A stretch of 24,000 bases of DNA from an uncultured Methanosarcinaceae archaeon (GCA_963847185.1 CAWJYV010000009.1:20647-44646), one strand, 5' to 3'. Shown: positions 3,163 to 21,048, counted from the first letter of the stretch. Numbers and translations: made by a program. The notes: generated from the letters alone by a model not told the origin.

Positions 3163-4512
3163 TCACAGAGGCCCTGCATATTTACTCATAATATCTTCCA
3201 GCAAAGTAAGCCCTCCGCTGAACCCTGCGTAACTGTGCTCCAGCACAACACGGTCATATGAAGGGAATGAAACCGTCAGATGTATGGCATTGAATTCAGG
3301 ACCGGCTATATTACTTTCGAGAGAACTCGCAAGCAGGAATAAGAAATTCCTGTCTTTTAAATTCTGCCGAATACGATAGGCATCAACTTCATAAATTATC
3401 TCGGGCCATGCAGGAGTTTCAAGGCCAGTTGTCAGCTCCTCATTTATTAATTCACGGGCTTCTTCAGGTGGATTATCCGTTATCTGGACAATGTCAGGTA
3501 GATATCCCACCTCATTTGCAAGGTATTTTGTGATGCTTACAGCCGAATTACTGTCGGCAACAACTGCGAGATACGGATGTGGTCTGACGATCAAAAGTAT
3601 GTCGCCAATATATTCTGCAAATCTGTACGCCCGCCTTTCCTCTCTGGCAATCAGATCTTCAATAATATCTGCTGAAACATCTAACCTTTCTCCGACTACT
3701 CTCAGAAACTCTGAGGTTTGCTTGGGTCCGACCGGAACTCCAGGGAAGGAGATATAGGGAGTATCAAATTTTTCCTCAAGTTTTCTTGCAGTCTTGTGAC
3801 CAATCCAGCTTGAAAGAACAATATTATATTCGGCAGCAGGAATTTTTTTCAGGTTCTCAAGAGCATCAAACTCTCCTACGATCAGATTTGCCTTCAAGCC
3901 TATTTTTTCAAGAAGCGTTTTTATCTCTCTTGCTTCCCCTTTCCAGAATATATGCTGGGAAGGGACTAGACCGAATACATTTACCAGCCCTTTCTCTTTC
4001 GGAGCCTTTTCAAGGAGCTGATCGATTACAGCGTCGAAAAAGTATTCGTAGCCATCGTACGAGGTCCCTGCAAACCCTGAGGTATTCACATGTATGATCG
4101 GGACTTCAGGGTTCTTTTCTTTATACCCTCTGATAACCGACCCCACGTCATCTCCGATAAGTGAAGGGACACAGCCGGAGATCACTGCAAATAACTCTCC
4201 ATTTACAAGTTCTACCGTTGACTCAATAAGCTTTTCAAGTTTTTTCTCGCCGCCGAAAATCACATGCTCCTCGACTAAAGAGGAACAGGGTGTGCTTGTT
4301 CCTCCGTAAGGGCCTCCGGCATTCTGGCCGCCGCCGTAAAATTGGCCAAAAAGCTGCCCGATCCCACATCCTGCCCCGGAATGGAGGATAGGAACAACTC
4401 CAAATATGCCGACGGCAGTTGAATACGCCCCTCCGAGTGCGCAGGAGTAACGCGGCGCTTCGATCGCGCCTGAAATAAGATTGGCTGTCTGTAAAGATTC
4501 ATCAATTACCAT
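3163..4512 (-). CDS. nitrogenase component-1 beta-type subunit homolog (NifK/NifN-like)
   Basis: 449 aa. RYSCALGGAY, LHSGAGCGIG and VISGCVPSLIGDD align by eye with NifK C70, C95 and C153. NTSGFAGT aligns with the S188 region. AGGTG lies upstream of the ATG, 13 nt after the D-like stop. Confidence 0.8.
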   Translation of the reverse strand: MVIDESLQTANLISGAIEAPRYSCALGGAYSTAVGIFGVVPILHSGAGCGIGQLFGQFYGGGQNAGGPYGGTSTPCSSLVEEHVIFGGEKKLEKLIESTVELVNGELFAVISGCVPSLIGDDVGSVIRGYKEKNPEVPIIHVNTSGFAGTSYDGYEYFFDAVIDQLLEKAPKEKGLVNVFGLVPSQHIFWKGEAREIKTLLEKIGLKANLIVGEFDALENLKKIPAAEYNIVLSSWIGHKTARKLEEKFDTPYISFPGVPVGPKQTSEFLRVVGERLDVSADIIEDLIAREERRAYRFAEYIGDILLIVRPHPYLAVVADSNSAVSITKYLANEVGYLPDIVQITDNPPEEARELINEELTTGLETPAWPEIIYEVDAYRIRQNLKDRNFLFLLASSLESNIAGPEFNAIHLTVSFPSYDRVVLEHSYAGFSGGLTLLEDIMSKYAGPL

Positions 4513-4525
4513 GATTACACCTGAT

Positions 4526-6071
4526 TCAGTCCTCTGCTTGAAGATAATAAAGCGAATTAGGCTGTTTGTACCACCAGTCCTTGTATGTACTCTGGGTCTT
4601 TTCTTTCATAGTTCTCTGGTACGAATGACTTTTCAATGACTGTAAAAGGAAGTTTCCAAATGCAATCGCTCCCGTATAACCGCTCTGGGCACTCCAGGGA
4701 TGTGGATCTGACCTCAGGGCATGTACCCTTGTAACACCCTTGTCGCGCTTGAATGCACCTCCCTGGAACGGGCAGGTCATTGCAATATCGGGATCTCTCT
4801 GGTTTGTTATGTGGGTCTGTTCTGCAGCCTGGAAGGTATTTACCAGAATGTCAAAGTCCCCCATCTGGGTGATCAGTTTCTCAAGATCCCTGAGTATTAG
4901 GTTGTCAAAGTCCTGGCACATTGCGGCTGAAGATTTAAGGCCGAGTTCGTCAAAGTACGGGACCTGAGCCAGAAGCCTTCCCTGTCCAAGTGCGCCCAGC
5001 ACTTCTATCTTCTCTCCATTGCCTTTGAAATTTTCAAATTCACTTCTGATTGCTTTCAGCTTCGGAAGCCACTTTTCATGTTCCTCTTTGATAAGGGCTT
5101 CTACTTCCTTTTCTTTTCCAGTATGTCTTGCAATCTCCCTCAGCCATTCATCCGTATGTGCAACTCCCATCGGAGAGGGATATAGGAAATAGGGAACTCC
5201 ATATTCCTGTTCAAGCCCGCGGGCGAGATAGTCAGTATAAGTCGGGCACAGTGGTGCAGTAACTGCAGCTTCGGAAAGTTGCTCAAACTGCTCCACAGAT
5301 GCAAATTCGGGAATGAAGTTAACTCTTAGACCTACTTTTTCCAGCAGGCGTTTTATTTCCAGCCTATCCTGCCATGTATAGGAAAGCATACTTGCTACAT
5401 TTACGAGATCTTTCTGTTTCTTTTCCGGTTTTTTGACCAGGTACTTTCAGGACGGCGTGCCAGAAGGCATCATAGCCGGTCTGGACAAGCCTTGAGCGTG
5501 AGCCCTCACAATGGATAGGGACGATTGTTGCTTTTACCTGCGGCTGGTATTTTGCAACAACTCCTTCAATGTCCTCTCCGATTATTCCTGAGGTACAGGA
5601 TGTAAGTATGAAGATTGCTTTTGGATTGTACCGTTTCTCAGCCTCGAGGATTGCTGCGCCGAGTTTTTCTCCGGCACCGTAGACGACATCTTTTTCTCCT
5701 ATGTTTGTCGTAATCCAGTGAAGATCGTAATTGGCAGGGCGCCCAAGTTCAACAGGCACGTGCCTGTAGAGTTCACGGTATCCGAGAGCTGAAGACGAGC
5801 AGCCTACAGGTGCATGATATATAGCTACAGCATCACGGATTGTTCCGATCCTTACTGAAAGGTAGAAGTTCAGAACACAACCACTGGACTGCTGAAAATT
5901 CCTTCCTCTCTGCCTCAGGCAGCCTGTACGGGCTTCTTTTACAAGGTCACTTGCTTTTCCATACCAGACATTTATGCCGTTTGCCCTCTGTTCTCTGTTG
6001 GGACATGTGGCCCGTGATAGGTCGATTTTTTCTTCGATAAGTTCATTTTCAGTAAGTTCTGTTTCTGACAT
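4526..6071 (-). pseudogene. nitrogenase component-1 alpha-type subunit homolog (NifD-like), interrupted by a 1-nt frameshift near 5444-5448
   Basis: Track ORFs 5364..6326 and 4526..5389 are the N- and C-terminal halves of one NifD-like protein. The span of 1546 nt equals 3n+1. GGAG lies 9 nt upstream of ATG 6071 (MSETELTENELIEEK...). Joining at CTG AAA G TAC restores ...FWHAVLK/YLVKKPEKKQKDLVNVASMLSYTWQD... It could be a true pseudogene, a sequencing error or a recoding site. Confidence 0.75.
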
Positions 6072-6164
6072 CAATATTACTCCGTAAGATACCCGGTTTC
6101 CGTAATGAATTCGTCTCCATTTTATTCTGCTCCTGGCATCACTACGTCTAATTGAAATCAGTGG

Positions 6165-6232
6165 ATATATAAATCGGGAATTCAGCAAAAATGTGACCTT
6201 GTTTCTCATTATCCGAAATTTTGCGGCAAAAA
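6165..6232 (-). promoter_or_regulatory. nifD-like promoter: palindromic motif, 24 nt, second motif, 7 nt, TATA
   Basis: On the minus strand the order is TTTTTGCCGCAAAATT (6217-6232), 24 nt, ATTTTTGCTGAA (6181-6192), 7 nt, TTTATATAT (6165-6173). The same arrangement occurs at 12023-12090. Confidence 0.55.
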
Positions 6233-6470
6233 CCAATACCCTAACTTCCGTCTTTTTAGGCGCATATATTCTTTTCCGCATCTCTGAGAGGTCAGATGAT
6301 TGCTGTTTGGAAATTTTACCTTGCATCTGATGTGCTTAAGTTTAAGCGCATTAGTTGATATCAGGTGACATTTATGTGCTTAAAAATGCGGAACCAAGGC
6401 CAATATAGGAGAAATTCAAGAAAATTTACTAAAATTCATAAATCCCAGAAGAAGTTAGGGAGGAAATAAA

Positions 6471-6590
6471 ATGACCAAGATAACCGATGAATTAGTGATT
6501 CGTGGAAACCACATTAAAAACAGAATTGTAATGGCTCGTATGGTTACTTTTTCCTTTCATGGAGATTGCCCGACAAGAAATGATGAGTAA
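6471..6590 (+). pseudogene. 39-codon stub resembling the N-terminus of an Old-Yellow-Enzyme-type NADH:flavin oxidoreductase
   Basis: GGGAGG, 7 nt, then ATG. MTKITDELVIRGNHIKNRIVMARMVTFSFHGDCPTRNDE* contains the OYE-like LKNRIVMAPM-type block, then stops 25 nt before the HepT gene end. It is below the ORF-track size cut-off. Confidence 0.35.
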
Positions 6591-6614
6591 AATTAAGAGT
6601 CTTAAAGGGAGATT

Positions 6615-6965
6615 TTATTCGAAGTTTTTTTCTTCCAGTATCTTTTGAATATCCCTTTTCAATTCAGGCAATCTTTCATTTGCAGTATTCCAGACAACAC
6701 TCAAATTTACACCAAAATAAGCGTGGATTATAACATCCCTGATTCCTGCCATTTTTCTCCAGGGAACGAATGGATATTTCTTTCTTACCTCTTCAGGAAT
6801 ATGTTTTGTTGCTTCCCCAATAATTTCAAGTGCATGGTTTACAGCAAAAATTGTTTTTTCATCGGAAACAAATTGATCGAAGTCCATTCCTTCAATAAAA
6901 TGTTCACAACTTTCAATAGTTTCAAGGATATCTTGCAGATAATTTTCGACATCACGCTCAATCAT
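6615..6965 (-). CDS. hepT: HepT-like (DUF86) ribonuclease toxin
   Basis: 116 aa with an Rx4HxY motif (IRDVIIHAYF). It overlaps the upstream nucleotidyltransferase gene by 4 nt. Confidence 0.85.
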   Translation of the reverse strand: MIERDVENYLQDILETIESCEHFIEGMDFDQFVSDEKTIFAVNHALEIIGEATKHIPEEVRKKYPFVPWRKMAGIRDVIIHAYFGVNLSVVWNTANERLPELKRDIQKILEEKNFE

Positions 6966-7294
6966 ACCTGCACGACCTCTTCAAGAATCCTTTTCCCAAT
7001 CCTCGGTTTTAACGCGCTTTTCATTACGAGATCCACTTCCAGGCCAAGTATTTCCGAAAGCTCCTGTTTGAGCCCGATGAATTCTAGGAGGTCAGGTTCT
7101 TTAGAGAATTCTACAAGAATATCAAGATCGCTTTCTTCTTTTTGTTCTCCGCGAACGTAAGAACCAAAAATTCCCAGATAGCTGACGTTATATTCCTGTG
7201 TAAGTTTTGGAAGATGCTGACTAATAATTTTCGAGAAATATGCTGCATCCTTTGCTTTTTTGTCACTTGACTTGGTGATGGTATTAACTGTCAT
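6962..7294 (-). CDS. mntA: MntA-type minimal nucleotidyltransferase antitoxin
   Basis: 110 aa with LGIFGSYVRGEQKEESDLDILVEF (the GSxxRGx5SDxDxxV motif). It forms a type VII toxin-antitoxin arrangement with HepT. Confidence 0.85.
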   Translation of the reverse strand: MTVNTITKSSDKKAKDAAYFSKIISQHLPKLTQEYNVSYLGIFGSYVRGEQKEESDLDILVEFSKEPDLLEFIGLKQELSEILGLEVDLVMKSALKPRIGKRILEEVVQV

Positions 7295-7501
7295 GCATCC
7301 TCATAGTCTTGAGTTTAGGTTATTACTCGTGAAATTAGTCCTGTAATATATTTTTGTGTTCAGTATTTAAAAGTAAGGCTTAATTTACCTCTGAATTTTA
7401 GTCATATAACTTGCTAATCCTCTTCTGTGATTATACAGGATTTCATAATTTCGAGCTCTTGATATCTGATATTACCTTATTTTGATCCATTCATGAAACG
7501 G

Positions 7502-7897
7502 CTATGTTATATAGTCGAATAATACATTTTCGAGTTTTCTCTCAAATCTTGGACTCATTTTGCGTAGAGGAGTTTTAAGCGGCTCATAGAATCTGCCAAA
7601 TATTTTATAATAATCATTGAAAATAGGTTGAAGTTCCGAACTTATTTTATTATAAGGAGTTTTAAATGGTTCATAGAATCTGCGAGTTGTTCTACAGTTT
7701 TCACTGAAATTAAGTCTATAAACACCTATTTTGCTGATAAATTCGATATTTTCTTCGCGGAAAAATCCAATCTGCCTGTAGCCTACTTTGCCGTCGTCAT
7801 CATTTATAGTGAATTCTTCGTCATATAGTGAATTTTCAATTTCAGATTTATTTTCAAAAAAATTAGGATCAAATGAAGGGCTATCATTATTAAACAA
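7502..7897 (-). CDS. hypothetical protein with an internal RFYEPxKTPxxKxS duplication
   Basis: 131-aa ORF with a TTG start and no family I recognise. It has an acidic N-terminal half and two copies of RFYEP(F/L)KTP(Y/L)(N/R)K(I/M)S. Confidence 0.4.
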   Translation of the reverse strand: MFNNDSPSFDPNFFENKSEIENSLYDEEFTINDDDGKVGYRQIGFFREENIEFISKIGVYRLNFSENCRTTRRFYEPFKTPYNKISSELQPIFNDYYKIFGRFYEPLKTPLRKMSPRFERKLENVLFDYIT

Positions 7898-8200
7898 TAT
7901 TATTAATGGATATTCTAAAGGAATTTTTCCATTCCCGACATCATTTTGAAGATTCTTTAACTGCCCTCTTAATTTTTTTTCTACTGCGTTCTTTATTTTA
8001 TATCCTCTGCTCCCTTTACCTCCTGGAAAACGTATCTGAGCTTCTCAGTTTGGATCCATATGGCTTTCGTAATCATAAAGCAATGTAGCTATTTCAATTA
8101 AGACTTTTTCTACACTACACTTATCTTCGATTAATAAATCCAAATTTGATTTATAATCTTCAACGTAACTTATTACACGTATTAACACCTATCTACTTAT

Positions 8201-8713
8201 ATGATGGGGAAAGAACGCATTCCAATTGATCAAAAATTAGTTCTTGATGAAATCAACGTTTTAATCAAACATGAAACCAATTCAAGAGTGCTTAAAAGGC
8301 TCTATTTTGTAAAATTTAGATTTTTAGGGGATTCAGTAGAAGAAGCCGCTACTAAAGTTGGAGTTACTAAGAAAACAGGATATTACTGGCAAGATGCCTG
8401 GAATAAAGGCGGCTATGCCGCCTTAATACCAAATTTTGGTGGGGGTAGAAAATCCAAGCTTACCGATGATCAAATAAAAGAGTTAAGAATCTTGCTGGAA
8501 AAAAAAGATCATTGGACTACAAGAGAAGCTTTGGAGTTAATAAAGGAAAAATATGGGGTAGAGTATTCACAGAAACAAGTAGGAGTTATACTGCATAGTT
8601 TTAACATGTATCATTCAAAACCATATACTCTTGACTACAGAAGACCTAAAAATGCTGAGGAAATTTTAAAAAAAGTTAATAGAAGCAATTCCAGCATATA
8701 TTGGTCCAGATGA
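8201..8713 (+). CDS. IS630-family transposase, N-terminal HTH part (orfA)
   Basis: 170 aa with HTH-like segments (VEEAATKVGVTKKTGYYWQDAWNKGG; WTTREALELIKEKYGVEYSQKQVGVIL), typical of IS630 N-terminal regions. Confidence 0.8.
   Translation: MMGKERIPIDQKLVLDEINVLIKHETNSRVLKRLYFVKFRFLGDSVEEAATKVGVTKKTGYYWQDAWNKGGYAALIPNFGGGRKSKLTDDQIKELRILLEKKDHWTTREALELIKEKYGVEYSQKQVGVILHSFNMYHSKPYTLDYRRPKNAEEILKKVNRSNSSIYWSR
8668..8675 (+). other. A7G slippery run at the orfA/orfB frame junction
   Basis: The sequence is TTA AAA AAA GTT in the orfA frame. A -1 slip gives ...EEILKKK-LIEAIPAYIGPDD..., a contiguous transposase of about 345 aa. Confidence 0.5.
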
Positions 8714-8732
8714 TCAATATCTTATAGGTTTT

Positions 8733-9239
8733 TTGGATGAATCCTCACCACAAACAAAAGCAAATACGCAACGATTATGGTCATTTAAAAAGCCTTTGAT
8801 AACAAAAAATACAGATTATATAAAAGCAAATGCGTTTGCATTCTATTCGATTAATGGTAGAAATCTCATCGATTTTATGGAAAGTTCAAAAGCAGAAAAT
8901 GTATGTGAATTCCTTGAGAAAATTGTGGAACAGAATTTAGGGAAAAGAATAATTCTTGTTCTGGATAATTCGAGGTCACATCATGCTGATAAAACGGTAA
9001 GGAAAGCAAGAGAATTAAATATAACACTTGTGTTTCTTCCTCCTTATTCACCAGATCTAAATCCTGTAGAATTTGTATGGAAAACGATTAAGAGAGAAGT
9101 ATCTGTTAGATTTATTCAATCAAAAGAACATTTAAAAAAGATTATCAAAAATGAATTTATGAAAGTGGAAAACTCATTATCATTTGCAAAGAAATGGATG
9201 GAAACATTCAATCCACAAATAAAAAGTGTAATTTGTTGA
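8733..9239 (+). CDS. IS630-family transposase, DDE catalytic part (orfB, -1 frame relative to orfA)
   Basis: FLDESSPQ..., ILVLDNSRSHH and PPYSPDLNPVEFVWKTIKRE match the DDE triad context of IS630. This frame is already open from about 8672 (KLIEAIPAYIGPDDQYLIGFLDES). Confidence 0.8.
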   Translation: MDESSPQTKANTQRLWSFKKPLITKNTDYIKANAFAFYSINGRNLIDFMESSKAENVCEFLEKIVEQNLGKRIILVLDNSRSHHADKTVRKARELNITLVFLPPYSPDLNPVEFVWKTIKREVSVRFIQSKEHLKKIIKNEFMKVENSLSFAKKWMETFNPQIKSVIC

Positions 9240-9339
9240 GTCAGGAACTATAGATTGAGATATGGGGTATTCCGGTGTTATTTCAAAATAAGGTGCTAGT
9301 TTAGCGGCTACTTCAATTTCTGCCAGTGTAGGTAAATCT

Positions 9340-9609
9340 TTATCGGGATTTAATAGATTCGTTTAACTTCCTAGTAGGTTTAGGATACTCTATCTGATAA
9401 CACATTATAGTTCTGAATAGACTTTCTAGGTAACATTGATACTGATACTCTGGGATGCAAAATGTATTTGCTATAATGCCTGGATTTTCTTGATTTAACC
9501 GAGCTTTCTTGATTATATTGTCGTAACCAATAGTATTACACAAGCAAGGAGCTCTTTTTAGATTTGACTCTAAATTTTTAATGTTGAATTCAATTTCAGT
9601 AGATGACAT
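9340..9609 (-). CDS. hypothetical protein, possibly the 5' part of a frameshifted gene
   Basis: 89-aa ORF with no recognisable family. A second frame, open 9362-9251, reads TNLLNPDKDLPTLAEIEVAAKLAPYFEITPEYPISQSI and runs into the IS630 end. Confidence 0.35.
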   Translation of the reverse strand: MSSTEIEFNIKNLESNLKRAPCLCNTIGYDNIIKKARLNQENPGIIANTFCIPEYQYQCYLESLFRTIMCYQIEYPKPTRKLNESIKSR

Positions 9610-9707
9610 TTATACAGACGTACCGAACGTCTACGTTTTCATGCTTTAAGGCAAATCTGCTCCAGTGGACTCGACGAGTCGAGAAACAAAAATACTTTTG
9701 CTCAAGT

Positions 9708-9989
9708 TCATCTTGATCCTTTCAAGGCAGAAATCCGTTCTTGAATTGATTTTTGATGTTCTTCTTCACTTAAGGAAGGATCCTTTAAAGAAACCCAGAT
9801 TTCGCAGGGGATTTGCGGGCAATCGCCGCAATTTAGATAACTTTTTTCCTTAACGCATTTATAAACAGGGCAAATATCAGCACCAATATACTGAGTCCAG
9901 TAAACTTTGCCTTCAAGTGCGTCACAACCGGCACAGTCATTATTCAGATGAGGACATCCGTCACAGTTTACTCCACATACACAGATCAT
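9708..9989 (-). CDS. cysteine-rich DUF3795-like protein
   Basis: 93 aa with 11 Cys in the pattern CVCGVNCDGCP...CAGC...CPVYKC...CGDCPQIPC, which I recognise as the DUF3795 layout. Confidence 0.65.
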   Translation of the reverse strand: MICVCGVNCDGCPHLNNDCAGCDALEGKVYWTQYIGADICPVYKCVKEKSYLNCGDCPQIPCEIWVSLKDPSLSEEEHQKSIQERISALKGSR

Positions 9990-10105
9990 CTTATACCTTC
10001 CTTAAACAACTTCAGCAAATATAATCAAATTTTGACGTTTAAGGTGAATAACTGTTTTAGTTATTTAAAGTACTATTTTTGAAACTGATATCAGCCGAAA
10101 AGTGG

Positions 10106-10142
10106 AGAATGACCAAATTTGGTCTTTAACTGTAGTCATTCT
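10106..10142 (-). terminator. hairpin cluster 3' of hgcB
   Basis: AGAATGAC (10106-10113) pairs with GTCATTCT (10135-10142). These arms enclose the perfect 14-nt palindrome GACCAAATTTGGTC (10111-10124). A further palindrome, CTGATATCAG, lies at 10085-10094. Confidence 0.4.
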
Positions 10143-10170
10143 TTAGCTTTCTAATGCAGATATTTTTTCA

Positions 10171-10506
10171 TTACTTTTCACTACAGGACTGTTTCTCTGT
10201 ATTTCCACCGCAGCAAGATCCAGCTTCTCCTCCGCAGCCGCACTCACCACTATCCATATCCTTTCCTCTAAGTGCTGCACCGATCATTGCCCATGCACAG
10301 CCAACCCCACTCTGCACTTCAATTGCCTGAACCGGGCAATTCAAAGCACACGCTCCGCATTCCATACATGCAGACGGCTGTAAAAGTTCAACACGTTCTT
10401 TTCCTTCGGAAAAAACTCCATGTGGACAGACCTGTGTACAGCGCCTGCAGTTGATACATCTGTCAGGATAATACTTGAGTGTGTTCTCAAGATAAGAATT
10501 AAACAT
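10171..10506 (-). CDS. hgcB: HgcB, 2x[4Fe-4S] ferredoxin of the mercury-methylation pair
   Basis: CINCRRCTQVCP and CMECGACALNCP (two CX2CX2CX3CP motifs), conserved GVGC, and a C-terminal vicinal pair in GSCCGG. The ATG abuts the hgcA stop with 0 nt between them. Confidence 0.85.
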   Translation of the reverse strand: MFNSYLENTLKYYPDRCINCRRCTQVCPHGVFSEGKERVELLQPSACMECGACALNCPVQAIEVQSGVGCAWAMIGAALRGKDMDSGECGCGGEAGSCCGGNTEKQSCSEK

Positions 10507-11580
10507 TTAGATCCACCTCATTAATACGATTATTCCAAGCAGAATTGAGAGTATAATTCCAGAACCTGCCATAAGTGCCATAACAGGTGTGTATCTGAAA
10601 ATTTCTTTTTTAACGCCAGTCCTTGAAGTAAAAGTCGTACATCCAGTGAAGTTAAGGGCCAGGTATGCTGTCAAAGCTGGCATAATAAGAAGAAATGCAA
10701 GTGACATTGAGGCATTTTCCCAGAAGGACAATACTAAATTTGTCGTAAAAGAAAAAACTGCGAAAGGAATGGCAACGATCTCTCCAAGAATGAGCCCTTT
10801 TGTACTGAAGTCATGTGTAGGGATAAACGGAAGCAGAGCTGGGAAGAGTACAGTTCCCGCAAGAACTGCTGTGACTGCAGCCAGGGCTGCAAGAGAGCCT
10901 GCAAGGAAATAAAGAATAATGCTGGCAACGATTGTCGGCAATGCTACGTGAACAAATTCCACAGGGGTCAGTACCAGCCGATCTTTTAATGGGAATTGAA
11001 CTCTGCGCATCTCAGGTGTTGCTTTTCGCATTTTGAGGTATTCTGGAAGGTCGCTGGCACGAACAGGGCCATATTCCACCGTAAATCCAGACATTCGTTT
11101 AACTTCGTATGCAGATATTCCCGGAGCTGACAACTGGGGAAGGATGAGAGTGCGATGCTTGACAACACTGGCAAGGCCTGTAGATGCTATACGCCGCACA
11201 AGTTCGTCTGTTCCAAATGTACCCTTACCCGCAGCACACCAGACATTAATTCCCTTTGTGTCCAGAACAAGAATATAACAGTCATTACCCGCAAGTGCGG
11301 AGCGAACAGCGTCAAAGCTTAGCGTATAGTTTGCTGAAACGAAGACCATTGAATCAGGCGTCGGAATCCCAAGCCTGTAAAGACCGGGCTTTACAATATG
11401 CCCCATCCTGTTTACTCCCCAACTGGCAAGGAAATGATCAAGCCGATTGGCAAATGTGATTGTGCTTGTGGTCGTACTGATCTCAGATACCGGTATATTT
11501 TCAGTCAACCGATTTAATGGTTTTATCTCCAATCTCTGTGTGCATGAGCACGATGAATCAGCAGTTTTTTTATTTTCCAT
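10507..11580 (-). CDS. hgcA: HgcA, corrinoid protein of the mercury-methylation pair
   Basis: 357 aa. It carries the diagnostic cap-helix motif LVLDTKGINVWCAAGKGTFGTDELVRR, flanked by VSANYTLSFDAVR and ILPQLSAPGI. The C-terminal ~150 aa form about 4-5 hydrophobic helices. Confidence 0.9.
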   Translation of the reverse strand: MENKKTADSSCSCTQRLEIKPLNRLTENIPVSEISTTTSTITFANRLDHFLASWGVNRMGHIVKPGLYRLGIPTPDSMVFVSANYTLSFDAVRSALAGNDCYILVLDTKGINVWCAAGKGTFGTDELVRRIASTGLASVVKHRTLILPQLSAPGISAYEVKRMSGFTVEYGPVRASDLPEYLKMRKATPEMRRVQFPLKDRLVLTPVEFVHVALPTIVASIILYFLAGSLAALAAVTAVLAGTVLFPALLPFIPTHDFSTKGLILGEIVAIPFAVFSFTTNLVLSFWENASMSLAFLLIMPALTAYLALNFTGCTTFTSRTGVKKEIFRYTPVMALMAGSGIILSILLGIIVLMRWI

Positions 11581-11598
11581 GTGGTCCCAACTCTCTTT

Positions 11599-11901
11599 TT
11601 AATCCTGATTTTGCATCAAGGGGTCTAACACTCCTTTTACCATTCCGCTAAGAGCCTCGACCTTTATGAGAGCGAGGCAGCAAATACTACCGTCCTTTTC
11701 CCAGCTGATCAAAGCAAGTTTATTCCCGGTATTAATGCCAGCTTTCTCCCTTACGTCTTTTGGAAGTACCATCTGCCCTCTCTCATCCACACTGAGAACT
11801 GCCTCAACCTTACATCCTGAACCCTGATTACATCCACATGACAATCCATTAGAATTACAACATTCATCAATTATTTTCTTATTAGCCATTAGAATCCTCA
11901 T
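11599..11901 (-). CDS. cysteine-rich SpoVT/AbrB-domain protein, first gene of the hgcAB operon
   Basis: VDERGQMVLPKDVREKAGINTGNKLALI is an AbrB/SpoVT signature. The N-terminus is ECCNSNGLSCGCNQGSGC and there is an internal ICC. The stop lies 18 nt before the hgcA ATG. An alternative start at ATG 11889 is preceded by GAGGA. Confidence 0.75.
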   Translation of the reverse strand: MRILMANKKIIDECCNSNGLSCGCNQGSGCKVEAVLSVDERGQMVLPKDVREKAGINTGNKLALISWEKDGSICCLALIKVEALSGMVKGVLDPLMQNQD

Positions 11902-11921
11902 AACAATAAGGTTTTTCCGCT

Positions 11922-11959
11922 AATTTATACTTTTCTGATTAATAAGAAAAATCAGAAAA
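11922..11959 (-). promoter_or_regulatory. TATA box abutted by a 10-bp perfect inverted repeat (candidate operator of the AbrB-like/hgcAB operon)
   Basis: On the minus strand, TTTTCTGATT-N9-AATCAGAAAA (arms at 11931-11940 and 11950-11959) is followed after 1 nt by TATAAATT (11922-11929). The TATA box lies 20 nt upstream of ATG 11901. Confidence 0.5.
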
Positions 11960-12022
11960 ATTATCAGAGTAATCTTTTAATTAGCCAGATAAGAAATGGA
12001 AATTCAATAAAATAGCAGGGAA

Positions 12023-12090
12023 TTTTTGCCGCAAAATTAAGAAAAACAGAATTTCAATGTCAATTTTTGCTGAAGTCTAAGCTTATAAAT
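12023..12090 (+). promoter_or_regulatory. nifH-like promoter: palindromic motif, 24 nt, second motif, 8 nt, TATA
   Basis: TTTTTGCCGCAAAATT (12023-12038), 24 nt, ATTTTTGCTGAA (12063-12074), 8 nt, TTATAAAT (12083-12090). ATG follows at 12123. Confidence 0.55.
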
Positions 12091-12122
12091 TGTATCTGTT
12101 TGTTTCTCCGTATGGTGATGAA

Positions 12123-13031
12123 ATGGCAAAAGCACGAAACATCGCAATCTACGGAAAAGGAGGTATCGGAAAATCGACTACCTCATCAAATCTTTCAGCA
12201 GCTCTTTCGGATCTTGGACTTACAGTAATGCAGATTGGCTGTGATCCTAAGAGCGACTCTACAAATAACCTGAGGGGAGGAAAATCGATTCCTTCAGTTC
12301 TTGATGCTTTAAGGAGTGGGAAAAGAATTGAAACCAGCGACATTGTCTATGAGGGCTTCAATGGGATCCTCTGTGTGGAAGCGGGAGGACCGGAGCCAGG
12401 AGTGGGATGCGCTGGCAGAGGTATTATTACTGCAATTGAACTCCTTAGGCAAAAAAATGTCTTTGAGGAGTTCAAACCTGATGTTGTAATCTATGATGTC
12501 CTCGGAGATGTCGTCTGTGGAGGGTTTTCAATCCCTATCCGTGAAGGTGTTGCAGAACAGGTCTACACTGTCGCATCCTCGGATTTCATGGCAATATATG
12601 CAGCTAACAATCTCTTTAAGGGAATAAGGAAATATGCAAACAACGGCGGTGCGCTGTTCAGTGGCATAATTGCAAATTCAATGAACCAGCAGATTCAAAA
12701 AGAGATAATAAATGATTTTGCAAATCAGACAAAGACAACGATTGCAGGATATGTACCCCGTTCGCTTGACGTTACGAGAAGTGAACTCAGAGGGCAAACT
12801 GTGGTCGAACATGCACCTGACTCTGAGCAGGCTGAACTGTACAGAGAACTTGCAAGGGGCATTTTGCACAATGATAAGAAATACGTTCCTGCTCCGCTGG
12901 AGTCCGAAGAACTCAAAGTATGGGCTGAAAGCTGGTCAGATATACTCCTCAGGGAGCGTGAACAGGTACATACAGGAGAAGTGAAAAGAAGCAATGTGGA
13001 AGGAAGAACGCTGGTAAGCTCGGAAGCATGA
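12123..13031 (+). CDS. NifH-family Fe-protein homolog (nitrogenase-like reductase ATPase)
   Basis: [14 protein letters not shown] (P-loop), CDPKSDST, and the cluster ligands in GVGCAGRG and [11 protein letters not shown] 12123 with GGTGA upstream is preferred over the track's TTG 12090. The protein is 302 aa with an extended C-terminus. Confidence 0.9.
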
Positions 13032-13571: not shown

Positions 13572-13608
13572 ATAATGATGTTATTAAATCATACTCTGCG
13601 GTAAAATA

Positions 13609-13896
13609 ATGGAATTAAGTGACCGAAATCTGAAGCAAAACAAGAGTTACCGAATTATGATTGATTCGGAGGGAGCGGGACATATTAGAATAATCAGACG
13701 TATCAACCTGAAGACTCTAATAGAAATTTTTAGGGAACTTTATCTTGAGCTTAAAAAAAATCCTGACAAAAGGCCCCATATAACAATATACGTTTCCCAT
13801 TCGATCTATGAGGAGATGTCGGATAATATGAAACACTTCCATGAATTTGCAGTCTCATGTATGGATGGGACATTTGATCTTACAATTATTAGCTAA
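13609..13896 (+). CDS. hypothetical protein (95 aa)
   Basis: ORF from the track with no family I recognise. It is preceded by the paired palindromes. Confidence 0.45.
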   Translation: MELSDRNLKQNKSYRIMIDSEGAGHIRIIRRINLKTLIEIFRELYLELKKNPDKRPHITIYVSHSIYEEMSDNMKHFHEFAVSCMDGTFDLTIIS

Positions 13897-14003
13897 CTGA
13901 TCATCCTCAATTAACTAATTCATCAGGGATTTTTACTGCTAAATTTGAAGGGGAAAGCAAAATTATAGTTTTTCCAGGAATTTTCCCATGCTGGATACTG
14001 AAA

Positions 14004-14017
14004 GGTACAATTGTACC
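14004..14017 (+). promoter_or_regulatory. 14-bp perfect palindrome GGTACAATTGTACC with the same ACAATTGT core
   Basis: It lies 163 nt upstream of the wHTH gene. A half-site, CTCACAATG, lies about 30 nt upstream of ATG 14180. Confidence 0.4.
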
Positions 14018-14179
14018 AGGCATTTATTAAAGCAAATGTTTATTTTAGCCATATCCGGCCTTTCAGATATCCTTTTTGTACCCATTTGCATAATTTGAAC
14101 CAACAGGTTTAAAAATAAAGACAGCTTCTATGAAAATGGTGACTCACAATGAGGGATCGTTTTTGTTGTTAATGAACCA

Positions 14180-14446
14180 ATGAATAGCAGTCTGAATGAA
14201 ATTGATTATGAAAAGCTTGAAAAGCTGCCTCCATCTGCAAAGCTTGTGTTTAAAACTCTTGAAGCAAACGGACAAATGACACAGAAAGATTTAATTCGTG
14301 AAACAATTCTTCCTTCACGCACAGTAAGATATGCACTAAACAGGCTAAAGGAAGAAAAGATTCTGATGGAACGTTTTTATTTCCTTGACTCACGCCAGAG
14401 CCTTTACGAAATAAAGAGGCAGGTGAGTAATGCTCTTGCAGTCTGA
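14180..14446 (+). CDS. small winged-helix (MarR/TrmB-like) DNA-binding protein
   Basis: 88 aa. LPPSAKLVFKTLEANGQMTQKDLIRETILPSRTVRYALNRLKEEKILMERF is a typical archaeal wHTH layout. Confidence 0.7.
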   Translation: MNSSLNEIDYEKLEKLPPSAKLVFKTLEANGQMTQKDLIRETILPSRTVRYALNRLKEEKILMERFYFLDSRQSLYEIKRQVSNALAV

Positions 14447-18160: not shown

Positions 18161-20545
18161 TTAAAGACTGTGCATGGGCGCAAAACTATTTCCTGAGTAT
18201 GTTACTGCCGATCCTGGCAGGTCAATACCCAGGGCTTCTTTCAAGACCTCTTCAATGGTCTCTACAGGTACGAATTTAAGTTCGTTTCTGACATCTTCAG
18301 GCACATCCTCAAGATCTCTCTCGTTTTCTTTTGGCAGGATTACCTTCTTTATGCCTGCTCTGTGGGCTGCAAGAACTTTTTCTTTTATGCCGCCAACAGG
18401 CAATACGGCACCGCTTAATGTAATCTCTCCTGTCATGGCAAGTTTGGGATCAACCGTTTTGCCGGTAATGAGAGATGTCAGGGCAGTGAAGAGTGTTACA
18501 CCTGCTGAAGGGCCGTCCTTTGGAGTTGCACCTGAGGGTACATGGATATGAATGTCTCTTGAAGTGAAGTCAAAGCTGTTTGCATTTGCAAGCCTGGACC
18601 TTACAAGGCTCTGGGATATCTTTGCAGACTCTTTCATCACGTCCCCGAGCTGGCCTGTAAGCGTAAGCTTTCCGCTGCCCGGCATAAATGTGCCTTCTAT
18701 GAAGAGAATGTCTCCACCTACAGGGGTCCATGCAAGGCCTGTGACTACGCCAGGGACATTCTCTTTTCTGGCCTCTTCCTGCCGGATCAGTTCTTTTCCG
18801 ATGACCTCTTTGAGCATATCCGGCTTCACCACATAAGGAAGGTCAGCCTTTCCTGACACGATTTTCTCGGATACAAATCTTGCAGTCTTTGCAAGCTGTT
18901 TCTTAAGCCCTCGGACTCCTGCTTCACGGGTATATTTGTCGATGATTACCTTCAAGGCTTCGTCTTCAATTTTGAGTTTATCTGCATCAAGTCCATGCTC
19001 TTCCAGTACGTAGGGAAGCAGATGGTCTTTTGCAATTGAAAGCTTCTCGTTTTTAGTGTAGCCTGAGATCTCGATCATTTCCATTCTGTCAAGGAGAGGC
19101 CAGGGGATGCTTGCAAGGGAATTGGCAGTGGCTATGAACAATACGTCAGACAGATCATAAGGGACTTCCAGATAGTGATCTGAGAACGAGCCATTCTGTT
19201 CGGGATCAAGGACTTCGAGAAGAGCACTTGCCGGATCTCCTGCATAGGAAGCTGAAAGCTTATCGACTTCGTCGAGGATAAACACCGGGTTCTTAGTGCC
19301 TGCTTTTCTCATACCCTGTATGATTCTTCCCGGGAGAGCTCCTACGTATGTCCGCCTGTGTCCTCTGATCTCGGCTTCGTCTTTGACACCACCAAAGCTG
19401 ACTCTTACGTATTTCCTGCCAAGGGCATCTGCAATACTTTTTCCCAGACTTGTTTTACCTGTGCCCGGAGGTCCTATGAAGAGCAGGATTGAGCCCTGTT
19501 TCTCGCGTTTCAATTTCATTACCGCCAGATGCTGGATTATTCTCTCCTTAACCTTTTCAAGTCCGTTGTGATTACTCTCAAGCACACGGCGGGCTTCTGC
19601 GATATCAATACTCTTTTTCTCTTCTGTTACCCAGGGGAGATCAAGCAAGAGGTCCAGATAATTTCTGATAACATGGCTTTCAGGGTTATGGTTTCCTCCC
19701 ATCTCGAGTTTCTTTAACTCTGCCAGTGCCTTTTTCTTTACCTCATCAGACATCTTCGAGTTTTCAATTCTCTCCCTGTATCCAATCTCCTCGGAATCGG
19801 AACCCTCACTTTCATTGAGTTCATCCTGGATTACTTTGAGCTGCTCCCGCAGCAGAGCTTCTCTATGAGACTTACTTATTTTATCGGACACTTTTTTTGC
19901 CACTTCTACCTGGATGTTGATATTTTCTTTTTGCTTTGTCAGGATGTAAAGAAACGTCAAATAACGCTCACGAACAGAAATGATCTCCAGAAGGTTCTGT
20001 TTTTCTGCAAGATTTATCGGCATAAAGGGCATAACATATCCCATCACCTGGTCAATGGAATCCATCTTCTCTAGTGGCCGGGTAAACTGTTCAGAGCCCT
20101 GGAAACGGTTGCTGATATCACGAACTGTCTTTTTTACATCCGCCATGATTTCTTCCTGGAAATCTTCATCTAGATCAGGAATATCAGACACAGGTTCATA
20201 TTCAGCATAGAATATTCCATCTCTTTTGTTCAGGGAAACAGCCTCAACTCTCTGAGTAGCCTTTGCAGAAATCAGATATCCATCATCAGCAGGCTGCACA
20301 AATGTTACTTTAAGCAAATTTCCGATCTTATACAGATCGTCTTCTGATAGATCTGAGAGTTTTATCCCGCTTTTTACTGTCAGTCCTATTGCATATGTGG
20401 ATTCACCGTTCTCCATTTCAGTTAAGAGTAATTCTCCTGTGGTTTTGTCAGCCAGGAATTTTGTCCGGCTTTTGGGGTAAATCACTATGTCAAAGAGCGG
20501 TATTATGAGACTATCCCGGTTATCATGAGTTTGTTTTGAATACAT
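18161..20545 (-). CDS. lon: ATP-dependent Lon protease, LonA (bacterial) type
   Basis: 794 aa with a LON N-domain, Walker [10 protein letters not shown], Walker B FILDEVDK, and the protease Ser in PKDGPSAG. No membrane insertion is seen in the AAA+ module. Confidence 0.9.
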
Positions 20546-20628
20546 TGTTAGCCTTCTCGATTATTCTTTCAATCTTTGTGTCGATTATTTAGTTTTAATT
20601 GACCTAACTATTTGGCCGGACAAAAAAA

Positions 20629-21048
20629 TTACCTTATTTTCCCTAGAATATCAATAAGGGCGTCCATATCGTCGTCGTCCAGAGAGTCTGCAACCTTCTC
20701 GATAAGTTTCATCAGAGCTCTATTTTCGGCACGTGCTATCATCTGCCCTTTTTCGGTTAGACGAATGTAATAGATTCTTCCGTCATCTGGAGATTTTTCT
20801 CTACACACACAATCCATTTTGACGAATTTATTAATCATCTCTGTAATTGTGGGTTTTGAGTTTCTGGTGATCCTGGCAAGCCTGCTGAATGTTACTTCTT
20901 CGTATTCATCAATGGCTTTTAGATATCCGATTTGCTTTACGGTAATATCCGACAACCCGCACTCAGAAAAGATCTCACAAGAGCATTCGCTTTTGATTTT
21001 AACCAGCTTTTCAAAAACTATGAATAAATGCTCTTTTTTCTCCATCAT
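20629..21048 (-). CDS. MarR-family transcriptional regulator
   Basis: 139 aa. ITVKQIGYLKAIDEYEEVTFSRLARITRNSKPTITEMINKFVKMDCVCREKSPDDGRIYYIRLTEKG is a wHTH plus wing. Confidence 0.8.
   Translation of the reverse strand: MMEKKEHLFIVFEKLVKIKSECSCEIFSECGLSDITVKQIGYLKAIDEYEEVTFSRLARITRNSKPTITEMINKFVKMDCVCREKSPDDGRIYYIRLTEKGQMIARAENRALMKLIEKVADSLDDDDMDALIDILGKIR

Follow-up and report, generated by a model that had tools for sequence, protein, structure and literature searches.

The 24,000-nucleotide stretch of DNA analysed here, from an uncultured Methanosarcinaceae archaeon (GCA_963847185.1 CAWJYV010000009.1:20647-44646; hereafter the window, with positions counted from its first letter), carries the three genes of a nitrogenase-like enzyme, here called nflH, nflD and nflK, in two divergent units, and between these units lies hgcCAB, a set of genes for mercury methylation. 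The nfl genes appear to encode a single reductase whose two units share one promoter design, and hgcCAB sits with a promoter of its own in the spacer between them. The explanation that we favour, and to which we give somewhat better than even chances, is that the nfl genes form the regulon of an uncharacterised reductase for sulfur salvage, and that hgcCAB was inserted into it as an autonomous cassette and has since been inherited along with it.

Identity of the H, D and K proteins

On the minus strand, nflD (4526-6071) and nflK (3163-4512) lie in tandem and encode the D (alpha-like) and K (beta-like) subunits of a predicted Group-IV nitrogenase-like reductase. NflK is intact, with 449 amino acids (aa), and NflD has 514 aa once one extra base is removed; they are two distinct subunits, 27-30% identical to each other, and both belong to the Oxidored_nitro family of Pfam (E = 1.4e-70 for NflK and 2.6e-68 for NflD). 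On the plus strand, nflH (12123-13031), the sole NifH-like sequence in the window, encodes the 302-aa NifH-type Fe protein, or ATP-dependent reductase, of the system (Pfam Fer4_NifH, 1.5e-100), and diverges from hgcC across 221 bp. An earlier note on this DNA had drawn the same layout, and its places and strands for nflK and nflH stand, as does its AbrB-like/hgcA/hgcB operon divergent from nflH; its NifD-like gene, on the other hand, is not one open reading frame (ORF), being interrupted by the extra base near position 5444.

Among the Pfam families, NflD and NflK match the general Oxidored_nitro family only, and both fall far under the NCBIfam cut-offs for NifD/K, VnfD/K, AnfD/K, NifE/N, BchN/B, BchZ and CfbD: the nifD model gives 138 bits (cut-off 654), nifK 79 (cut-off 427), and CfbD 49 and 36 for the two subunits (cut-off 268). 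The scores of NflH are 387 for nifH (cut-off 394), 353 for CfbC (cut-off 402) and 351 for the nitrogenase reductase-like model PRK13230 (cut-off 350). Genes for nifB, nifEN or nifI were not found in the window, as the earlier note had observed, and together with the nifD and nifK scores this bears out its view that the locus is no standard nitrogen-fixation operon; its further view that we are not dealing with CfbCD, the system for coenzyme F430, is upheld by the presence of two distinct subunits as well as by the CfbC and CfbD scores.

When each protein was compared with all solved structures, all three found the methylthio-alkane reductase (Mar) as their best match: NflD matches MarD (9fmg_A) with 251 bits, against 111 for the runner-up, NflK matches MarK (9d9u_C) with 287 against 99, and NflH matches MarH (9fmg_D) with 403, followed by a NifH with 293. 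The cysteine numbering of the matched Mar chain is that of the published MarD and MarK ligands, which confirms the matched PDB entry as Mar. Compared with the Rhodospirillum rubrum enzyme, D is about 41-42% identical over residues 3-345, and K is 37% identical. Cysteines C65, C91 and C159 of NflD align with the P-cluster ligands Cys66, Cys91 and Cys158 of MarD and are invariant in the family, C24, C49 and C114 of NflK align with Cys32, Cys56 and Cys121 of MarK and are invariant in 30 homologues, and the likewise invariant C275 of NflD is the equivalent of MarD Cys270, the residue that anchors the [Fe8S9C] cluster. The pocket is different: in the alignment to 9fmg_A, Cys73, Gln74, His194, Trp195 and Phe199 of Mar are replaced by Arg, Ile, Leu, Val and Tyr in NflD. 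The C-terminal domain of NflD gave no alignment to MarD by phmmer or by a 17-sequence profile, and by these two methods the region of the Mar hallmark Arg428-His429, on the extended Loop I, likewise fails to align; His450, within an invariant TR-x-H motif, is a candidate second cofactor ligand only. NflH shows the P-loop and the two [4Fe-4S] cysteines expected of a NifH-type Fe protein, and a VCGGF motif can be read in its translation. Orthology with Mar does not hold, in that co-resident paralogues in three loci (L032, L025 and L059) score higher against Mar.

Judged from these sequences, H, D and K are the subunits of one nitrogenase-like reductase forming a separate Group-IV clade, in a comparison that covered the NCBIfam models, the solved structures and the fetched loci. 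Within that comparison none of the three proteins falls in a clade of established function. Groups IV-D and IV-E are themselves listed as of unknown function in a 2026 review (PMC13474568). A putative selenocysteine in the NflD of the Geobacteraceae locus L032 was rejected, the in-frame stop being a TAA upstream of the true start.

Paired promoters of nflH and nflDK

NflH and NflD show matching identities to their counterparts elsewhere (95 and 96% in Methanosarcina hadiensis, 90 and 87% in Methanolobus chelungpuianus, 75 and 75% in Methanoculleus), and the majority of other methanogens have colinear genes, ordered nflHDK or nflDKH. The promoters of nflH and nflD in the window carry perfect 16-nt inverted copies of TTTTTGCCGCAAAATT, at 12023-12038 on the plus strand and at 6217-6232 on the minus strand, and both promoters are built in the same order, with TTTTTGCCGCAAAATT followed by 25 nt, TTTTTGCTGAA, 7-8 nt and a TATA box. 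In the nflH promoter region (12023-12090, plus strand) TTTTTGCTGAA occupies 12064-12074 and the TATA box 12079-12090, and in the nflD promoter region (6163-6232, minus strand) TTTTTGCTGAA occupies 6181-6191 and a TATA-like box 6163-6174. The 11-mer core TTGCCGCAAA occurs 21 times in 1.2 Mb of related loci, and all but one of these occurrences (20/21) stand at fixed distances from nflH or nflD, namely 87-103 nt upstream of nflH and, in 14 related loci, 149-171 nt upstream of nflD. The nflH promoter is kept in the hgc-free relatives L003, L010 and L013, and the core is also found upstream of nflH in Methanoculleus.

Since the promoters of the two halves are near-identical, nflH and nflDK are probably regulated together, as one regulon, despite the gap between them. 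Loci in which H and DK are split are already known from Rhodopseudomonas palustris (marKD2 and marHB2), and nflDK stands with no nflH nearby in L001, L006, L012, L015 and L016, five loci of Methanosarcina type for which 6 kb or more of upstream sequence is available.

The hgc cassette and its insertion slot

On the minus strand, hgcC (11599-11901), encoding an AbrB/MazE-like HgcAB-associated protein, is followed by hgcA (10507-11580), for the mercury-methylation corrinoid protein, and hgcB (10171-10506), for the mercury-methylation ferredoxin. All three pass their NCBIfam equivalog cut-offs, with 121.1 bits for near_HgcAB (HgcC; cut-off 70), 444.8 for HgcA_corrinoid (cut-off 275) and 118.6 for HgcB_ferredoxin (cut-off 99), and the cap-helix motif N(V/I)WCA(A/G)GK of HgcA is present as GINVWCAAGKGTF, NVWCAAGK being invariant in our alignment A2. 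By these measures the genes are an HgcAB(C) system with predicted methylation activity. Their order agrees with the published placement of an AbrB-like gene (hgcC) upstream of archaeal hgcA (PMC10349881). The hgcC promoter (11923-11957, minus strand), a palindrome TTCTGAT...ATCAGAA followed by TATAAAT, is kept upstream of hgcC whether or not a locus has nfl genes, Methanoculleus included. As read from the DNA, hgcC-hgcA-hgcB is a self-contained cassette with its own promoter, located in the spacer between the two nfl promoters.

This spacer is variable. Homology between the window and its relatives ends at the two nfl promoter elements, and the boundaries of the cargo in Methanosarcinaceae lie 0-7 bp from the 16-nt element. 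Six different contents were found among close relatives: the spacer is empty in L003, where nflH and nflDK diverge directly, their promoter elements about 95 bp apart; it holds genes for a 473-aa and a 130-aa protein in Methanosarcina sp. UBA5 (L010), small ORFs in L013, and hgcCAB alone in M. chelungpuianus (L004), contiguous with nflDK on one strand; in M. hadiensis (L017), Methanosarcina GCA_033485115 (L163) and ERZ25039495 (L164) it holds hgcCAB with an HdrD-like CCG protein and a 311-aa ORF (orf311); and in the window it holds hgcCAB, a DUF3795 gene, an IS630 element, an ORF of no recognised family and an MNT/HepT pair. Of the readings offered in the earlier note, that of an island which came to lie between the two divergent halves of a single locus fits these contents best, given the directly divergent halves in L003 and the unrelated cargo in other relatives. 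When the window is compared with M. hadiensis, the hgc genes give a synonymous divergence (dS) of 0.33-0.43 and the nfl genes one of 0.35-0.43, and from this equality it follows that the block was inherited as a unit; the flanks beyond the block differ between the two. Neither a tRNA nor an ORF for an integrase turned up at the edges of the block.

In Methanoculleus the arrangement differs. Relative to L052 and L044, Methanoculleus L043 has its hgc genes in a clean insertion of 2.2 kb, upstream of an nflHDK operon that is native there. In the Methanoculleus-like contig L103 (1-12875), hgcCAB has the region's NifS-like gene as its neighbour, and the nfl segment is absent in its entirety; compared with L052, hgcCAB and about 8 kb of other genes replace about 14 kb that includes nflHDK, a homocysteine synthase gene and a SepSecS-like gene. 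Given these alternatives, the Methanoculleus region behaves as a variable island with alternative cargo. We considered and rejected a site-specific insertion at the 16-nt element: the Methanoculleus homology to L044 runs about 180 bp past the element, and insertion into an unconstrained spacer suffices.

The HdrD-like CCG/4Fe-4S protein and orf311 were observed between hgcB and nflD at 5964-8175 of L017, 8809-10380 of L163 and 8902-12528 of L164, and downstream of nflK in Methanosarcina baikalica (L008, 6433-8176); the window has neither. L046 and L068 have more distant homologues close to their nfl genes, and the two proteins may be accessory to the nfl system.

Family distribution and sulfur-assimilation neighbours

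Homologues of NflK at 57-95% identity are common. Among archaea they occur in Methanosarcina, Methanolobus, Methanothrix, Methanospirillum, Methanoculleus, Methanoregula, Methanocella, Methanobacterium and Methanobrevibacter, and among bacteria in some Bacillota, in Sporomusa and in metagenome-assembled genomes labelled Geobacteraceae, Polyangiaceae, Myxococcales and Chloroflexales. The mean column identity of NflD across archaea and bacteria is about 79%. To describe the company these genes keep, all ORFs in 81 non-redundant related nfl loci were clustered, which gives counts that are lower bounds because many contigs are short. A taurine/sulfonate-type ATP-binding cassette (ABC) transporter was present in 24 of the 81 loci, O-acetylhomoserine sulfhydrylase or homocysteine synthase in 19, CysK in 16, a NifX-like protein in 15, CysE in 11 and a NifS-like desulfurase in 8. 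From these neighbours in other genomes, the role of the nfl enzyme is probably to free assimilable sulfur from an imported organosulfur compound. A role in sulfur release is further supported by the likeness of this context to that of Mar and Isr, two characterised nitrogenase-like enzymes of sulfur salvage.

Seven contigs (L020, L046, L049, L059, L066, L025 and L032) were seen to carry two or three paralogous nfl D/K sets with 25-75% mutual identity, for example three sets inside 16 kb in a Methanoregula contig, which suggests a multi-enzyme family with different substrates. Just 3' of nflK in two Methanoculleus loci lies a gene for a RACo-type reductive activator of corrinoid proteins (12167-13669 in L043, which has hgcCAB, and 12566-14062 in L044, which does not).

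The closest comparison among known systems is with Mar (MarBHDK, Group IV-C; PDB 9FMG and 9D9U), which shares with nfl the H plus D/K architecture, the six P-cluster cysteines and the Cys270 ligand; its likeness extends to the sulfur-assimilation genes around the nfl relatives, O-acetylhomoserine sulfhydrylase among them, and to the split of H from DK in R. palustris. The nfl system differs from Mar by its low identity, by the replaced pocket residues, by the non-aligning C-terminal domain of D, and in that no gene for a marB-like or NifB-type radical SAM maturase was found in the window. Isr (IsrBHDK, Group IV-F), compared by description only, is likewise an anaerobic sulfur-assimilation enzyme of nitrogenase-like type, and the taurine/sulfonate-type ABC transporter of the nfl neighbourhoods is in keeping with this; Isr is without the conserved ligands of P-cluster and cofactor, and a [4Fe-4S] cluster is predicted for it (PMC13474568), whereas nfl keeps the ligands. 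CfbCD resembles nfl as a nitrogenase-like system of methanogens with a NifH-type reductase, CfbC being a strong secondary match to NflH, but has a single D-type subunit where nfl has distinct D and K. NifHDK and the Group IV-A enzyme Nfa, the latter again compared by description only, share the superfamily, the subunit plan and the P-cluster cysteines with nfl, and differ from it in that the nfl neighbours are sulfur rather than nitrogen genes.

A frameshift in nflD

The extra base near position 5444 splits nflD into two ORFs, 6071-5445 and 5443-4526. At the break the window reads CTGAAAGTAC, where six relatives have CTGAAATAC or CTGAAGTAC without the insertion, and after removal of one base the 514-aa product fits the family consensus throughout, without gaps. 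Relative to M. hadiensis, the ratio of non-synonymous to synonymous substitution rates (dN/dS) in nflD is 0.06 upstream of the break and 0.028 (about 0.03) downstream. The frameshift is therefore either very recent or an assembly error. The source of the window is a 57-kb contig of a Methanosarcina-like metagenome-assembled genome. In another such contig, L018 (707-3624), nflD and nflK are broken into several frames, from which it is seen that frameshifts in these genes can be assembly artefacts; the contig is labelled Acidobacteriota and, with an NflK 94% identical to that of the window, is probably mis-binned.

One could speculate that the frameshift is real and the locus decaying, that the enzyme has no activity in this organism, and that the spacer's mobile elements mark an ongoing erosion. 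This would concern the status of the locus and not its identity, and it is compatible with any other reading. Decay would accommodate the one-base insertion that none of six relatives has, the IS630 element and toxin-antitoxin pair in the spacer, and the loss here of the HdrD-like/orf311 pair that L017, L163 and L164 keep; set against these are a D, a K and an H that are otherwise free of lesions, the low dN/dS downstream of the break, the metagenomic source of the contig, and the several breaks that L018 has in the same genes. On balance we regard decay as a real possibility that falls well short of likely.

Linkage of hgc and nfl genes across genomes

A divergent hgcC-nflH junction, the feature common to all linked loci, was found in the window and in seven other loci (L017, L163, L164, L004, L167, L084 and Methanoculleus L043). 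Viewed from the nfl side, hgc genes accompany those of M. hadiensis, M. chelungpuianus and Methanoculleus sp. ZNE14_Bin75, three among about 79 other loci. Viewed from the side of HgcA, nflH is present in 1 of 80 loci (L084) in a metagenome sample at 56-83% identity, and in none of the roughly 28 metagenome hgcA loci with at least 3 kb of upstream sequence. Among seven hgcA look-ups on longer contigs, L163 and L164 were nfl-linked, L167 had an adjacent nflH with no nflDK within 2.5 kb, and four were unlinked (L165, L166, Methanomethylovorans and Methanolobus psychrotolerans). In an HgcA tree, built by neighbour joining from a small sample, the linked loci occur in three Methanosarcinaceae subclades and are interleaved with unlinked ones. 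Several of the linked genomes are close relatives and hence do not represent independent events, and several contigs are too short to inform. The association of hgcAB with nfl genes recurs, and as a general association it is weak, most hgc loci and most nfl loci being unlinked. The outcome by which the earlier note would have stood refuted, proteins inside a clade of known function and no recurrent link to hgcAB, was thus not obtained. In L165 and L166 (also in L087 and L089), which form a sister group of HgcA loci (77-83% identical), the hgc genes were seen among genes for DsrE/DsrH sulfur relay, PF04060 iron-sulfur proteins, CMD and DGC proteins, thioredoxin and arsenic resistance, not nfl.

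Weighing the explanations

According to the explanation that we favour, NflH would be the ATP-dependent reductase and NflDK the catalytic component of one nitrogenase-like enzyme. Electrons would pass from NflH to a P-type cluster at the D/K interface and on to a putative large cluster in D, held by Cys275, the likeliest second ligand being the invariant His450; there an imported organosulfur compound would be cleaved reductively, its sulfur going to the synthesis of cysteine or methionine. With the same promoter and operator, the two divergent nfl units would act as one regulon. The hgcCAB cassette would have lodged in the nfl promoter spacer before the compared Methanosarcina lineages diverged: it was there in the ancestor that the window organism and M. 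hadiensis share, and probably earlier in Methanosarcinaceae. The spacer collects insertions, and the further cargo in the window occupies the place that the HdrD-like gene and orf311 hold in other Methanosarcina. The separate cassette, the variable spacer and the shared inheritance lead us to attribute the physical linkage to insertion and co-inheritance; it looks like an old insertion travelling with the cluster, and we infer that hgc and nfl are not coupled.

A number of observations weigh against this account. None of the sulfur-assimilation genes that accompany the family elsewhere lies in the window, so that the proposed sulfur-salvage role is drawn from the neighbours in other genomes; since the C-terminal domain of NflD gives no alignment to MarD, its histidine ligand is a candidate only; and if the frameshift is real, the nfl enzyme is dead in this organism. 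The hgcC-nflH adjacency is moreover more persistent than a neutral insertion predicts, appearing in two orders, in at least two configurations and through one separate insertion. It is present in three Methanosarcinaceae HgcA subclades and in L167, where nflDK is not nearby, it arose by that separate insertion in Methanoculleus, and in M. chelungpuianus hgcCAB and nflDK adjoin each other on the same strand. In a genome of a few Mb, chance alone would put the two within a few kb of each other at a rate of about 0.1-0.2% per genome.

This persistence keeps a functional link between hgc and nfl alive as a rival, metabolic or regulatory, in which both would serve one thiol, methyl-sulfur or metal(loid) context and selection would preserve their proximity; the nfl reaction might, for instance, yield or use up a thiol or methylated sulfur compound with which the methyl-corrinoid of HgcA naturally pairs. 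The junction indeed recurs in Methanosarcina (four genomes or contigs), in the Methanolobus-like L004 and L167, in L084 and in Methanoculleus L043, and its scatter over the Methanosarcinaceae HgcA tree suggests long retention; yet the majority of loci of either kind are without the other, and the slot carries unrelated cargo in sister genomes. The tight same-strand hgcCAB-nflDK of M. chelungpuianus and the HdrD-like CCG protein between hgcB and nflD in three Methanosarcina could also be taken to reflect a shared task, as could the sulfur-relay, thioredoxin and arsenic genes around unlinked hgc loci, although L103 has hgcCAB in place of an nfl segment. While the nflH operator is only about 120 bp from the hgcC start, the two promoters are separate and have different sequence motifs. 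All in all, we think a functional link unlikely. A working partnership, in which hgcCAB would repeatedly be placed beside nflH and inside the nfl cluster because NflH feeds low-potential electrons to HgcB/HgcA or because both systems act on the same methylated sulfur or thiol compound, seems to us distinctly unlikely.

The proposal in the earlier note that the Fe protein serves HgcA fares poorly on these data. As an ATP-driven low-potential donor, NflH would return the corrinoid of HgcA to Co(I), directly or via HgcB. It is true that the gene always found next to hgcC is nflH and not nflDK, that in L167 nflH is adjacent to hgcC although nflDK is not within 2.5 kb, and that H and DK are often unlinked, as the five loci with nflDK and no nearby nflH (L001, L006, L012, L015 and L016) show. 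NflH is nonetheless an ordinary orthologue of the H subunit of colinear nflHDK and co-varies with NflD, among solved structures it matches MarH best, relatives without hgc have the same C-terminal tail, and it is present in most hgc-free genomes, while the great majority of hgcAB organisms have no adjacent nflH. The known corrinoid activators are RACo- and RamA-type proteins, and a RACo homologue stands beside nflK in Methanoculleus with or without hgc. We therefore hold this role for NflH to be very unlikely. A corrinoid or other tetrapyrrole as the substrate of the nfl enzyme itself, which like DPOR, COR or CfbCD would then make or modify the HgcA cofactor, is suggested by the existence of characterised tetrapyrrole-reducing relatives and by a cluster that encloses a corrinoid protein gene. 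Those relatives use [4Fe-4S] clusters and lack the full set of P-cluster cysteines (PMC13474568), whereas the nfl family keeps all six, together with the cofactor cysteine; the CfbD, BchN/B and BchZ scores are far under their cut-offs, the neighbours are sulfur-assimilation and not tetrapyrrole genes, and the family occurs in most hgc-free genomes. The pattern of conserved ligands and the neighbours thus disfavour the corrinoid substrate that the earlier note had contemplated, and we consider it extremely unlikely.

Other features of the window

The cargo between hgcB and nflD, about 4 kb that the earlier note had passed over, begins on the nflD side with a predicted toxin-antitoxin pair on the minus strand, HepT (6615-6965; Pfam HepT-like, 6.7e-31) and its partner, the nucleotidyltransferase MNT (6962-7294; NTP_transf_2, 3.4e-16). 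This pair is also found upstream of nflD in L006 and is absent from M. hadiensis and M. chelungpuianus. There follows a 131-aa ORF (7502-7897, minus strand) with no Pfam match and no homologue in any fetched locus, which contains a direct repeat, D1, of 76 nt (7553-7628 and 7640-7715, 71% identical) encoding a FYEP.KTP..K motif. An IS630-type transposase is present on the plus strand as two ORFs, one for the helix-turn-helix (HTH) part (8201-8713; HTH_32 and related HTH families) and one for the DDE part (8733-9239; DDE_3); they are about 20 nt apart, for which a programmed frameshift, decay or an assembly error are possible causes, and a related, fragmented copy lies downstream of nflK in L010. 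The cysteine-rich small DUF3795 protein (9708-9989, minus strand; 6.9e-10) completes the cargo, and its gene was never beside hgc or nfl in the other fetched loci.

On the far side of nflH, two small ORFs follow on the plus strand. One (13609-13896) encodes a conserved 95-aa protein with no family match, possibly an accessory protein, and the other (14180-14446) an 88-aa winged-helix protein (HTH_24, 3.6e-06), possibly a regulator and a candidate binder of the shared 16-nt element TTTTTGCCGCAAAATT. DNA homology over this stretch (13609-14446) covers both ORFs in M. hadiensis, UBA5 and L013, and in M. chelungpuianus it reaches the 95-aa ORF part only (window 13605-13907). Further out, 5-8 kb from nflH, a Lon protease/MarR pair (18161-21048) has a counterpart that adjoins hgcCAB in Methanomethylovorans (L168, 3042-5929); this shared neighbourhood could be a remnant of older synteny or a coincidence.

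Implications

The superfamily of the enzyme is already known, and the nesting of hgcCAB within an nfl locus appears to be unreported: published neighbourhood analyses of HgcAB and HgcC give ars genes and an AbrB/PrlF-like gene and no nitrogenase-like neighbours, and our literature search found no earlier report of hgcA beside nitrogenase-like genes. A conserved nfl family that combines nitrogenase-type ligands with the company of sulfur genes points to a further anaerobic sulfur-salvage reaction in methanogens. The natural function of HgcAB is a long-standing question, and a conserved neighbour other than the ars genes and hgcC provides a concrete hypothesis, for which Methanosarcina hadiensis TD41E1-1, in culture and with its genome complete, can serve as a test organism. 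A partnership between the two systems, if true, would give a first clue, from genomes, to what HgcAB natively does; should the two be uncoupled, the locus is still a clear case of a divergent promoter pair serving as a recurrent landing site for accessory genes.

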